Below the pieces are notes generated by a model. That model was given only the letters and a program-made list of their open reading frames with translations, was not told the DNA's origin and ran no database searches. Below, piece by piece: positions 20,695 to 31,158 of a DNA stretch of 32,000 bases. Position 1 is the first letter of the stretch. Each line of letters opens with the position of its first letter. The stretch lies in NCBI GenBank assembly GCA_048882505.1, contig JBHLRO010000027.1, positions 1 to 32,000 of the forward strand, written 5' to 3'. This DNA is from Candidatus Thorarchaeota archaeon (GTDB lineage: Archaea; Asgardarchaeota; Heimdallarchaeia; Hodarchaeales; Hodarchaeaceae). Made by a program: the position numbers and the translations under genes.

Positions 20695-21777
20695 CTAGTT
20701 ATTCGCAGAACTTAATCGAATACCAAGTCGTGAGACAATAAACATGTTAAGAGAAAAAAACCAGATCCAGAATGAATAAATCAGAATGAAGTTGTGCCAA
20801 TTATTGCTGGTACTAATCCCCCTAAGTGAAACCACAAAAAATATCTGTACAAGAAGAATTAGTAGAAAGAACCGAAGCCAACGAGGTCTCGGAGGAAATT
20901 CTTTGTCTAATCCCTGTAATATATTTCTTATTGTTGCTTTCTGGATTTTTTTTTCATTATTAGGACGCTCTTTGCGTTGAATAGTGATTCTCCTCCCTTC
21001 TTCAACTCCTGACCGATGGTTTAATAAATAAAGATTCAATTTGATTCGTATGGGCTGCCAATAATAAACCATAAATGCAATAGAATGCAATAAAGGCCCT
21101 GGGAAAAAAATTATAGCCTCCTGAATAACATAAAAGACTCCATTGTCAAAATAGTAAGAAGTAATAGGATTAGGTATGATTTTATTCAGAATTGCTATAA
21201 GAGCAGAAAAAATTGTAAAACTCATAAAATAGAAAATGAACCAAACATAAATCCATTTCAAAATAGGTATTTTCGTATTGGTTGCGTAATCTTGCCACTC
21301 TTCCAGTTCAGTGGCACTTTTGGGGGGTGGATCACACCAAGCGAGACAAAACCCAAATAGACCTAATATTATTGTTAATCCAAGGTATAATGTTAGAACA
21401 GGGATAACAAGTATCATTCCCCCTGAATCAGTCCTAGAAGTTGTAAATACCCCGATACCAATAGGAATCATGAAATATCCTGCAATTCCAAAAAATAACC
21501 CATAATTATTTGCACTTATTAAAGAAGAAAGTTTTTGAGTCATTGTTTTAAAAACTAAAAGATCAAGCGTGAAAAATGTCACCAAACAACTAATATAATA
21601 AACCGCGGGGCCTACCAAGATCATCAAGAAGTTTTCATCCTGTGTCCATCCAAAAGGATCCCACCCAGAAATCAACCAACCAAATGTTCCAAGAAAGACT
21701 GTAATTGTGGCAGAGGCAGCAAAACAACAAGCAATAAATGAATAAATCAAATTTGAAAAAACAGATTGCTGTTCCAC
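20695..21777 (-). CDS. Polytopic membrane protein, paralog 3 of the island family
   Basis: GWLISGWDPFGW, IPIGI, FFPGPLLHSIAFMVYYW align by eye with 23984-25102. Confidence 0.85.
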   Translation of the reverse strand: MEQQSVFSNLIYSFIACCFAASATITVFLGTFGWLISGWDPFGWTQDENFLMILVGPAVYYISCLVTFFTLDLLVFKTMTQKLSSLISANNYGLFFGIAGYFMIPIGIGVFTTSRTDSGGMILVIPVLTLYLGLTIILGLFGFCLAWCDPPPKSATELEEWQDYATNTKIPILKWIYVWFIFYFMSFTIFSALIAILNKIIPNPITSYYFDNGVFYVIQEAIIFFPGPLLHSIAFMVYYWQPIRIKLNLYLLNHRSGVEEGRRITIQRKERPNNEKKIQKATIRNILQGLDKEFPPRPRWLRFFLLILLVQIFFVVSLRGISTSNNWHNFILIYSFWIWFFSLNMFIVSRLGIRLSSANN

Positions 21778-22260
21778 AAGATTCCCCTATCTATCATCGC
21801 TTTATCTTTAGGATACCTCTCTAATTTCCTAAGGTTATATCTTCCTATTGAATCGTTTTATTTAGCTGTCATTAAGATTTGCGTTTTACCTTCATTTTTA
21901 CTATACAAAATAGAAATCTTGATATGGATTGACATTGAGTTAAAAGTGAGTCTAAAAGTCCTTATCGTACCGAAGACGAAAAGACCTCCCAATTACTCCC
22001 AAATTTTGGCCTCTTTTTGGATGAGAAGTATATTTTTCGCCCAATATTCCTCAAGCTTATCGTTAGAGTTTGATTTTGTTTCAATGAAAAATCGGAAGCC
22101 TTATTAAGCCTAGGTTTTATATTTAAAACAAAGAATTGATCAAATCCATCATATTGCCTAGATCAAAGTCAGAAATTGACTTCGCACTGATTAGTGGTAC
22201 CATTGGTAGAGGATGAACGAGAATCGATCCATGAAAAGGTTTAACTTCAATCTTTCTTAG

Positions 22261-31100: not shown

Positions 31101-31158
31101 TTAGTGTAGTGCTCAAAGATAGGTAAATCTTTTTATCTGGCAGGAACCCCCTCTTCAT
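25090..31158 (-). CDS. Giant 2022-aa exported protein: N-terminal anchor/signal, PKD/Ig stalk, Ca-binding DxDxDG repeats, hydrophobic helical C-terminus
   Basis: N-terminal TM; four canonical WxFGDG PKD motifs plus FDFHDG and two degenerate ones; six DxDxD(G) repeats; long hydrophobic helices after about residue 1465. Confidence 0.85.
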   Translation of the reverse strand: MKRGFLPDKKIYLSLSTTLIMGILVFNIGSKILQSELHEFDFSVEASPSVVDVGEAVSFRLTSIEGAVSQFIFDFHDGTPPVTVDPVTTTVYHAFAIEGGFLVSVTGIKAVGELGRVLTHLKVVAVTVQNEGPTVTFELEKSEVWEDEVVPFSVTSIVDSPGDVAAMQYQWLFGDGQSANGSAVTHTYTEAGTYEVTLQAIDDQGLVGMSSRSLRVENVLPSATMQVNATESTEDQTVVFDAQETTDSPSDVGSLLFGWNFGDGTLGSGPTVQHQYTEEGIYQVRLTVRDPSGGQAEVSTVITVENQLPFWSQIELNRTLLPEGQTLISHSQGQDTPSDQPRLSYRWFLENKRGQTVSWTYFDEQDLRVTGTLTDDNGASVTRESHVTFYNVAPSASLVATTLTFNLTLLMTGEKWHDAELKLLDETDQILLNDIIYRNATNPWNQSLFYPFVTLDLTHLWRVEVLYTPENDPVNGQPQGADPVHLYLNFSTGSSWLFEHTFNYNSPEGYLWRLPLQPFVTGFPIDYHINFYDPGQDDLTLEVIHPTDQVNLTILASTVGPNQGVTILTQNFAMNDTPPYFLLTFRILDEDGGSRNSTYLFEAPFGPSEGYHLAGSAPRIQAINSSIDRGVGQAWEDELITFDAQVLSSPIDQQLLVYHWQFGDGTTQITASPRVTHTFVTAGLYLVELTVQGAQYNTTRGILVEVDNVRPTGYVEHALGQSIEVGSALVFNASTSSDSLSDRDSLRFIWDFGDGDSHSGYSALTTHRYYHSGVYRGTLTILDDNAANDTVEFVVWVQNPAPQIQLAAQIQMNEGVTTLIEAQVTDSAFQVPYLAYQWQIDDIYVSQSRLNLFLNDGSYHGILTVTDSEGRQTSQGFQIIVNNQLPKVSFTPHLIYGSAPSAFRIHATAIDTVLDYQALQFRYAITNAMNTPLELLENQAWHSVTDGKILLDLDLSSLTHGQHTLLLQVKDPSNVGAAEQHPLVVFWDDDGDSVSNVLEAQLGTDETLADTDDDWIVDSQESTYGTDPARSDTDNDGLWDGYQASTGIGEFLVNTDPTDDDTDDDSLQDGLEVYGWNITVLLQGSSTAYHTQHVFSNPLLTDTDHDGLTDAKEYEARSNPQATDTDSDGLTDYEEYIHGTPLTAAYSRTTLMDASLSIDREAPENDPPWTIEFNLAETLKKDPPMLLDRQGGSLVATTHRVNIYDASNNLLAIRSLDTSGKGRYSYETYQSQIRVEFPGNGLYYRSETSVSPAYDAKEMIQNVGPENTAFISSNAFNNARFKIFRAYIEDSGAFSKSGNTYTMVADYAHIYHDVPFGIDLVRGYEVTSPVVSFTKDELESGLFDTTTIAIRQYDDWLGINWSDDIIPLPIITVYRVRTPYDLSKTDFLTLWLSMKLRPWRREHGPEDPGHERLTYVNQLAADLVTLLNYNKQQLEANPEFVASVYGRLNITTRLGFPDAKSGIEQFFEDLVNFIGALIAAALLIVAAIITTLVGLAVGVVNFLLNVWDQLIAPALGSVVEVIKEVAVTTVKVVLTIMTQALTGELPIIGIYKNYVKEIFLNIFENTDWTTIIQRLEASFSSVNLKEVIKPLATNVATMLGPADSFYQTIKVAQQVFAFPGIIQDLLSLIGPDLVFTLVSEFLKITITTAFKALIVSWGNNNIISFSNILNLESWGDQHIDSFIELVENFSSPGLENIITFSGIIHQLGSLENILNFSLWGDLLTFLMTRLRSASQNLIFKAFFDLSTTFIGGLLYLINPTAIFPTAHQTGGRGSFSSVLSNSPGEHNHSTLQKLTSISIFLFTAILSRSYSVIATASEVGELLAFVMDIESVFWATLNWAYVGGNPLLNLPGSIISEYGVRFNYLGANVLSFLFNQIGTMLGSFFEIPIVEQIFEPRVEKKTSLKWNQFKAIFSNGLQIVAAIATMAGIIFPIFGPETAVKHFLNDDPVLAGDILFFLQAGILHLLVNADRYEGKRHGREYGFINWDNIPSLKSPTKRSLILFGIGTFLDLGMAAVFMLWAE
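27740..28200 (-). repeat. Six protein-level Ca-binding repeats (thrombospondin type 3 / binary-toxin-like)
   Basis: DDDGDSV, DTDDDWI, DTDNDGL, DTDDDSL, DTDHDGL and DTDSDGL, mostly with a downstream E and T/S-D/N-P spacers. Confidence 0.85.

Follow-up and report, generated by a model that had tools for sequence, protein, structure and literature searches.

A PKD-stalk surface protein with a putatively exchangeable membrane module and co-varying polytopic membrane partners: a candidate polymorphic effector/immunity-like locus in an Asgard archaeon

We analyzed a 32,000-nucleotide (nt) stretch of DNA (the window; positions 1 to 32,000, forward strand, of contig JBHLRO010000027.1 in GenBank assembly GCA_048882505.1, Candidatus Thorarchaeota archaeon) for a locus that encodes a giant surface protein, P0001, followed by an array of polytopic membrane proteins that we call family M. 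An earlier reading of the letters alone (the sequence-only reading) had proposed that the giant protein is a stalk carrying a membrane-damaging effector and that the membrane proteins confer immunity to it. The Heimdall/Hermod-group Asgard archaea are the archaeal lineage closest to eukaryotes, and Asgard cell-cell interactions are central to models of eukaryote origin. To our knowledge, very little has been learned about competition and recognition among archaea, and least for the Asgard archaea. The features of the locus are collected in Table 1.

Table 1. Features of the window, with the evidence for each
Feature	Coordinates	Strand	Evidence
Giant surface protein gene P0001, 2022 amino acids (aa)	25090..31158	-	Open reading frame (ORF) and translation; PKD_4 E 6.7e-67
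N-terminal hydrophobic segment aa 11-33, signal anchor or long signal peptide	31060..31128	-	Hydropathy
PKD/Ig stalk aa 40-985, with an insert at aa 395-640 without Pfam match	28204..31041	-	Pfam and motif positions
Thrombospondin-type-3-like Ca-binding repeats aa 988-1135	27754..28197	-	Six DxDxDG-type motifs
Soluble domain aa 1150-1460, 30-68% identical to relative	26779..27711	-	Binned identity; no Pfam/PDB sequence match
Strong transmembrane (TM) segment aa 1466-1507 and conserved hydrophobic helical block C1 aa 1510-1657	26188..26763	-	Hydropathy; 56-66% identity to P0008
Putatively exchangeable C-terminal module aa 1658-2022: variable helical block C2 and tail	25093..26187	-	Identity to P0008 14-42%; DNA similarity lost
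Three-TM tail aa 1909-2022, homologous to orphan tails in other loci	25093..25434	-	Alignment, tblastn, TM prediction
M type A, P0002, 372 aa, ~8 TM, adjoins giant gene	23984..25102	-	Paralogy, TM prediction
M type C remnant P0003, 226 aa, C-terminal half of family only	23040..23720	-	Pairwise alignment to P0002/P0004
M type B cassette: P0004 gene 20695-21777 with 140 nt upstream and 24 nt downstream	20671..21917	-	blastn
TATA-like box and signal-peptide stub of a putative lost secreted gene S	23653..23965	-	Sequence, shared repeats, translations
Second TATA-like box and signal-peptide stub copy, after P0004	20390..20555	-	Repeats, alignment, translations
P0005, 218 aa, 2-3 TM, unrelated to M	22261..22917	+	Absent from all related loci
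Accessory island, continuing to contig position 32285 (285 nt past window end)	18427..32000	.	blastn contig C27 vs G016:C9
Secreted metzincin-like metalloprotease with signal peptide and HEWGH motif, in island	18535..19932	+	Reprolysin_5 E 2.9e-5, below gathering score

The giant protein and the membrane-protein array

The sequence-only reading had described a 2022-aa protein with an N-terminal anchor, about seven PKD units, calcium repeats, and a hydrophobic helical C terminus, and our analysis confirmed each of these parts. Pfam assigned PKD_4 (222 bits; cut-off, 27) and PKD (168 bits) in five stretches each, and a motif scan counted about seven units, made up of five canonical W/FxFxDG motifs plus degenerate ones. 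With tandem PKD domains above the gathering score and an export-type segment at its N terminus, P0001 has the makeup of a PKD-repeat cell-surface protein (PF18911/PF00801). The six calcium-binding motifs that the motif scan found at aa 988 to 1129 lie in a region where 26% of residues are charged, with Asp and Glu far in excess of Lys and Arg; the homolog P0008, described below, shows faint matches to PF18884 (TSP3_bac) as well. The C-terminal 560 aa have the composition of a membrane protein, like that of the M proteins (grand average of hydropathy, +0.3 to +1.5; 10 to 17% charged residues), and hydropathy and TM prediction gave clear helices at aa 1466 to 1507, 1912 to 1937, 1948 to 1968, and 1999 to 2021. 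An alignment of tails showed polar positions without variation (H, D, GD, Q, H, N, KR, and D) in and around the TM helices of the tail (aa 1909 to 2022), and the charges of the tail loops obey the positive-inside rule. Pfam searches at E ≤ 5 with aa 395 to 640, 1140 to 1470, and 1460 to 2022 returned nothing credible, and a PDB sequence search returned nothing.

The gene directly downstream, P0002, overlaps the giant gene's stop codon by 13 nt when read from its GTG start, which confirms the tight apposition of an approximately 370-aa polytopic membrane gene that had been noted in the letters; the ATG of the database record lies 14 nt downstream of that stop codon. Two further diverged copies had also been proposed. 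P0004 (360 aa) is indeed an intact paralog, 33% identical to P0002 over 344 aa (E 7e-62), but P0003 is not a full copy. It aligns with the full-length paralogs at 26 to 27% identity (E 2e-9 and 3e-9), with the family match continuing past one TGA, and because it holds only the C-terminal half of the family and closely follows a signal-peptide stub in a different reading frame, we regard it as a deletion remnant. Judged from these alignments, the paralogy of M genes in the window is far beyond chance. A TATA-like box and a signal-peptide stub are repeated after both full-length M genes of the window, and the two regions have repeats D4 and D7 in common. The first stub together with P0003 reads as the deletion scar of a former unit consisting of a secreted gene, S, and an M gene.

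Three motifs are kept across all M types (PNPxTSYY, FPGPFLH, and YYWxPIRxKL), and the family alignment contained no invariant Cys and no paired His/Glu motifs. The motif WDPxGW, which had been suggested as the mark of the family, is present in P0002, P0004, and P0009 (the gene after P0008) but is missing from some other members. No Pfam family matched P0002, P0003, or P0004 at E ≤ 0.1. AlphaFold2 modeled M (P0002) as a helical bundle (predicted local distance difference test [pLDDT] score, 64; predicted template modeling [pTM] score, 0.64), which reached template modeling scores of at most 0.23 against the AFDB clusters and Z scores of at most 8.0 in a PDB-wide search, where the matches were generic helical bundles, including rhodopsins, at a root mean square deviation of 4 to 6 Å. 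We tentatively set aside the idea that M is an archaeosortase/exosortase or a CPBP-type enzyme, as there were no conserved catalytic residues and no match to these enzymes; the fold search, made with a model at pLDDT 64, speaks neither for nor against it. The model of the C-terminal 583 aa of P0001 was all helical and too poor for a fold search (pLDDT, 43; pTM, 0.27). Look-alikes of M and of the C terminus in the ESM Atlas scored at most 0.87, with no family emerging. A complex prediction of the tail with P0002 scored 0.00; controls were not run, and this score is evidence neither way.

Related loci: a mosaic of stalks, tails, and M genes

The one full-length homolog of the giant protein, P0008, is encoded on contig 427 (locus L006) of GCA_048886025.1, a metagenome-assembled genome (MAG) that NCBI labels Hermodarchaeota. 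P0008 aligned with P0001 at 50% identity, beginning at aa 670 and reaching the C-terminal end, and identity computed in 50-aa bins varied along the protein: 56 to 86% over aa 710 to 1160 of P0001, 30 to 68% over aa 1160 to 1460, 56 to 66% over aa 1510 to 1660, and 14 to 42% over aa 1660 to 2022. At the DNA level, blastn found 66 to 75% similarity up to window position 26185 (about aa 1658) and then none to the stop codon except for one 33-nt motif. The ratio of nonsynonymous to synonymous substitution rates (dN/dS) between the two genes was 0.40 in the C-terminal module and 0.11 to 0.18 upstream of it. The sequence-only reading had asked whether stalk homologs all share the same C terminus; P0008 carries a C terminus of a different type.

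The neighboring M genes do not follow the stalks. P0009, the gene after P0008, is the ortholog of the distal gene P0004 (71% aa identity) and is of a different type from P0002, the M gene adjacent to P0001 (36%). A 1251-nt block of 80% DNA identity (blastn) joins window positions 21917 to 20671 with the relative's P0009 cassette, which starts 39 nt past the stop codon of the giant gene and ends 24 nt past the P0009 stop codon. Because similarity stops at 26185 and resumes at 21917, the stretch between these positions, which contains the variable C-terminal module, P0002, the stub with P0003, and P0005, appears to have been replaced or inserted relative to the homolog. Moreover, the proportion of synonymous differences (pS) was 0.34 in the M type B cassette (synonymous rate dS, 0.45; dN/dS, 0.34), whereas it was 0.67 to 0.72, and thus saturated, in every segment of the giant gene. 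This difference indicates that the cassette was shared between the lineages much more recently than the giant gene.

Homologs of the tail, taken here as roughly the last 140 aa, came from other loci as well. A free-standing 138-aa ORF lies in the same MAG as P0008 (L007 and L013), and an ORF at a contig edge comes from a JGI metagenome (L009); the P0001 tail matched L007 and L009 by tblastn at E 7.6e-13 and 1.6e-10. The tails of P0001 and P0008 are 37% identical, and each is 31 to 36% identical to the orphan tails of L007 and L009, so that the four tails are equidistant, at 31 to 37% identity over 118 shared columns. Since the tails on the two orthologous stalks are no closer to each other than to the orphan tails, we regard them as different types. 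The gene order in L007/L013 is a partial M gene of type F, the 138-aa orphan tail, M type D, M type E, and then unrelated genes; in L009/L010 it is the tail, an intact M type E gene, and a secreted gene S. In a third MAG (L011; GCA_030616065.1 contig 85, positions 1 to 785), a stop-ridden remnant has two tail-end helices fused head to tail, followed by a 110-aa N-terminal fragment of M type E and a 464-aa transposase-like ORF with a zinc-finger-like N terminus; this remnant reads as a decayed copy of the system. Thus, M type A accompanies the P0001 tail, type B the P0008 tail, type D the orphan tail of L007, and type E the tails of both L009 and L011.

The S protein that follows M type E is secreted and about 250 aa long (L009 1680 to 2384; L010 1288 to 1959). 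The S gene of L009 had no Pfam match at E ≤ 5, and its N-terminal part weakly resembles the stub after P0002, with the motif ..LDxNxDxxxDxxWI... Because of this weak resemblance, an ancestral repeat unit of tail, M, and S is suggested. An orphan B-type tail upstream of P0004 was looked for and not found, the best tblastn match being E 0.045 over 14 aa. A 133-aa ORF had no credible Pfam match at E ≤ 5.

In the relative, the giant gene is divided between two overlapping ORFs in different frames. The first, P0017 (113 aa; L006 555 to 896), carries the N-terminal anchor and opens with basic residues ahead of a hydrophobic segment; the second is the main ORF (1337 aa; 844 to 4857). The split is either a frameshift or an assembly error. 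The same split is present in the Logan assembly of SRR30758828 (L014), which is probably the same data. The relative's stalk is also without the first ~570 aa of PKD units present in P0001. In P0001, GC content at third codon positions (GC3) is 0.30 to 0.35 in the C-terminal module versus 0.43 to 0.53 in the stalk. We set aside the idea that this drop proves a foreign origin of the C terminus, since the fall is gradual from about aa 1050 and the relative's gene shows the same; it lends a C-terminal swap only weak support.

Both families are extremely rare. An exhaustive HMMER search with an M profile gave 8 matches in 1.84 billion representative proteins, 3 of which were the window's own, and word-indexed protein searches returned only the window's own proteins and P0008. 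A further sequence look-up with P0004 brought up no look-alike from any other genome. M was not found in 40 relatives, 21 of them from the same genus, a search of 400 genomes of the phylum for the tail gave no match, and pattern scans of metagenome and genome contig collections gave no further relatives. The members that we did find fall into at least 7 M types of at most 36% mutual identity, from about 5 sources. The sequence-only reading would have been refuted by M genes occurring singly and away from large secreted genes, and the family was never seen as an isolated single copy. Neither the M family nor the tail matched any Pfam family or known fold, the structure searches being those with the M model, and by these searches both are new protein families. 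The whole locus is also patchy: a genome of the same genus (G016) lacks contig positions 18427 to 32285, and blastn homology of the window's contig (C27) to its contig C9 is limited to 13411 to 18426 and 32286 to 32670. Searches of G016 for M and for the tail gave no match. Because the locus is absent from G016 despite flanks of about 90% identical DNA, we consider it an accessory island.

Weighing the explanations

These comparisons, made with one full-length homolog and fragments, show a pattern in which recombination near residue 1658 apparently exchanges the tail jointly with its neighboring M gene, earlier M genes and pieces of tail stay downstream as orphans, M cassettes also move between lineages independently, and each tail type travels with its own M type directly downstream. 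The locus accordingly resembles polymorphic toxin systems, in the broad sense of the concept reportedly put forward by Zhang et al. in 2012, in three features: a conserved stalk with a variable C-terminal module at a defined junction, as seen against the one full-length homolog; a downstream partner that changes type with the C-terminal module, as seen in four pairings of genes; and orphan C-terminal fragments or immunity-type genes downstream, namely M type B and the truncated type C in the window and the tail with types D and E in the relative. Together, the fixed junction, the co-replacement of tail and M, the orphans, the mobile M cassette, and the type diversity in a patchy island make up, as far as gene content can tell, the genetic signature of polymorphic toxin/immunity or recognition loci. 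The architecture proposed from the window alone, with a conserved stalk, an exchangeable C terminus, an adjacent cognate-type M gene, and downstream orphans, is supported by the P0008 mosaic, the orthology of P0004 with P0009, and the relative's orphan tail with its two M genes. The proposal of a stalk, effector, and immunity protein as a whole fared less well: its architecture stands, but the searches revealed neither a toxin domain nor a secretion partner nor a cleavage motif.

We tentatively favor the explanation that this is a polymorphic effector/immunity-like locus, built from families without known relatives, in which a membrane-active C-terminal module would be neutralized by its cognate M protein. 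The module might act as an ion-conducting or permeabilizing element in the membrane, and the cognate M could neutralize it by helix-to-helix recognition inside the membrane. The orphan P0004 would then be an acquired protector against neighbors displaying a B-type tail. This mechanism would involve delivery to another cell, toxicity, and binding of M to the tail.

Two bacterial systems offer models for such a mechanism. In contact-dependent growth inhibition (CDI), ionophore toxins have homologous helical membrane domains, and their immunity proteins are about 30% identical and cognate specific (Halvorsen et al. 2024, PMC11630599); cdiA and rhs are followed by orphan modules of C-terminal toxin (CT) and immunity genes (Poole et al. 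2011, PMC3150448). EC93-type CdiA-CT/CdiI and the window locus are alike in having a giant surface stalk with an exchangeable C terminus, helical membrane-spanning bundles at that end that are homologous but variable, membrane-protein partners of about 30% identity, a cognate gene directly downstream, and orphan cassettes beyond it. Unlike CDI loci, the window locus is without CdiB, a TPS domain, FHA repeats, and a VENN/PT motif. Its stalk consists of PKD and TSP3-like repeats, and Pfam placed only PKD families on P0001; the neighbors are an ABC/FtsX transporter, a metalloprotease-like gene, and small ORFs. The host has a single membrane, the variable module takes up about 365 aa of a 560-aa hydrophobic region in place of the smaller five-helix ionophore domains, and the partner is an 8-TM, 360-aa protein, with no sequence or fold relationship detected. 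TspA of Staphylococcus aureus is a toxin that depolarizes membranes, and downstream of its gene stand 10 paralogous genes for polytopic membrane proteins (Ulhuq et al. 2020, PMC7456083; see also Garrett et al. 2022, PMC9484751, on TspA/TsaI). Points of likeness are a C-terminal domain that depolarizes the membrane in the polymorphic toxin TspA and might do so in P0001, association with the producer's membrane, and a downstream string of nonidentical polytopic membrane paralogs. TspA differs in being a 469-aa LXG-type substrate of the type VII secretion system and TsaI in being a 5-TM DUF443 protein; Pfam found no LXG, DUF443, or type VII secretion component at the window locus, and the window array is short, with one cognate copy, one intact orphan, and one remnant.

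Several observations count against an effector and its immunity protein. Pfam and a PDB sequence search found no toxin, pre-toxin, cleavage, or secretion-partner domain in P0001, and no route of its C terminus to another cell is evident. Because of its integral-membrane composition and the Sec-type N terminus of the protein, the C terminus is expected to reside in the producer's own single membrane, and its hydrophobicity fits cotranslational insertion there at least as well as delivery. The M protein (360 aa, 8 TM helices) is much larger than typical immunity proteins, and the motifs conserved in all its types could mean that M itself has some activity. A search of the window's own genome turned up no orphan tail, and the dN/dS of 0.34 for the orphan P0004 does not prove retained function in the window. 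Finally, a single full-length homolog, together with fragments from three other sources, underlies every inference of a swap.

Alternatively, P0001 could be an adhesin whose C terminus is its own polytopic anchor, with M acting in cis to assemble, stabilize, or gate it. The arrays, orphan tails, and stubs would then be debris from tandem duplication and deletion of giant-M-S units and would play no part in conflict. The integral-membrane composition of the C terminus, the tail loops that follow the positive-inside rule, the frequent deletion scars in the window, the M motifs conserved across all types, a stalk built like those of ordinary archaeal surface adhesins, and the lack of any toxin signature in our searches all fit such an arrangement. 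It does not readily account for orthologous stalks that carry nonorthologous tails and adjacent M genes on either side of a sharp DNA breakpoint, nor for an intact M type B gene kept in a genome without a B-type tail, in a cassette that is synonymously much younger than the giant gene. Very high type diversity with a very narrow, patchy distribution is also unexpected of a structural partner, and we consider a cis-acting partner of an adhesin rather unlikely. The mosaic weighs against this plain form of partnership; it cannot, as genomic evidence, separate a toxin from a recognition system.

Nonlethal recognition of self or kin would have the variable tail and M form an allele-restricted heteromer in membranes, with the PKD stalk providing contact and matching cells adhering, cooperating, or fusing. 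IdsD and IdsE of Proteus mirabilis are a precedent, in which variable regions that overlap predicted TM helices determine allele-restricted binding (Cardarelli et al. 2015, PMC4471559), and the window locus shares with them adjacent genes for two membrane proteins with variable regions overlapping TM helices. The co-varying adjacent pair, the location of the variable regions in membrane-spanning parts, and the extra M copies are all compatible with such a role. The Ids proteins differ in their dependence on type VI secretion; IdsD has no surface stalk, IdsE consists of 2 TM helices and a soluble domain, and no homology was detected. An archaeal precedent is VARTIG of the Thermococcales, a large Ig-fold surface protein of unknown function with no counterpart reported outside that order, whose hypervariable module has been proposed to have such a role (Makarova et al. 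2021, PMC8416519). VARTIG is likewise archaeal, has a recombining hypervariable C terminus and variable downstream genes, and has been likened to polymorphic toxin systems. In VARTIG, hypervariability resides in the Ig domain at the C terminus of an arCOG07710-type protein, and Ig proteins are among the products of the downstream genes, whereas the window, in an Asgard lineage, has a membrane-embedded, hydrophobic helical module followed by genes for polytopic 8-TM proteins. We found no sign of intercellular transfer or of Ids-like export machinery, the conserved polar residues inside the tail TM helices suggest an activity and not mere recognition, and orphan partner copies fit protection better than identity. 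Recognition without killing is, on this balance, unlikely.

Other conceivable roles are that of a surface receptor joined to a membrane domain resembling a transporter or channel and served by an accessory subunit, with variation driven by viruses to which the giant protein serves as receptor, or that of a membrane addiction module that stabilizes the island. The locus is an island with distinct GC3, it adjoins a divergent ABC/FtsX transporter, and no known fold was found for M. Variation driven by viruses should strike the exposed stalk, which is here the conserved part, and the ABC transporter lies outside the island and is absent from the relative's locus. These explanations seem very unlikely.

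The effector/immunity-like explanation can be carried a step further, to a possibility that we hold only loosely: a system of cell-to-cell discrimination in Heimdall/Hermod-group Asgard archaea, in which a giant PKD-stalk protein would present the exchangeable module, the module would kill or mark neighbors without a matching 8-TM protein, and horizontal exchange of extra partner cassettes would let cells acquire protection. If this were true, both families would be new, and getting the module across a single-membrane envelope would call for a delivery mechanism so far undescribed. The layout is a familiar one; what is new are both families, the Asgard host, the large membrane-embedded variable module, and the 8-TM partner. 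The locus is a testable candidate: it offers two new families whose domain boundaries are defined, a recombination junction that has been mapped, and predictions of which sets are cognate and which are noncognate (the P0001 tail with P0002 versus P0004, and the P0008 tail with P0009/P0004). If the module proved to be membrane active and neutralized in a type-specific way, the logic of polymorphic ionophore-type toxins would extend to single-membrane archaea, and one would then have to explain how a hydrophobic domain of 560 aa gets to the neighboring cell. If the module is instead an anchor acting in cis, the locus still records unusually rapid modular evolution of the membrane domain of an archaeal surface protein.

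Surroundings of the island

P0005 sits in the middle of the array on the opposite strand and has a basic C-terminal domain. It matched no Pfam family, including at E ≤ 5, and has no counterpart in the related loci. The secreted metalloprotease-like protein of the island is 465 aa long, with the motif HEWGHLFAGHH, and its GC3 of 0.31 is like that of the M genes.

No Rfam families and no tRNA were found at the island borders, so that no tRNA-linked integration site is apparent. The short flanks at 18209 to 18426 and at C27 32286 to 32670 (L005 286 to 670) stand in the opposite order in G016, where an M50 peptidase gene is followed by segment B, about 0.6 kb, and segment A, with a different 1709-aa ORF close by. 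Because the flank segments are swapped in order, the island is probably not a simple insertion, and the M50-adjacent region appears to be a rearrangement hotspot. Upstream of the giant gene, at C27 32942 to 36939 (L005 942 to 4937), lies the divergent ABC transporter, in which two ATPase genes flank that of a 941-aa FtsX-type permease; the genome has further paralogs of it, and most of the genus has homologs.

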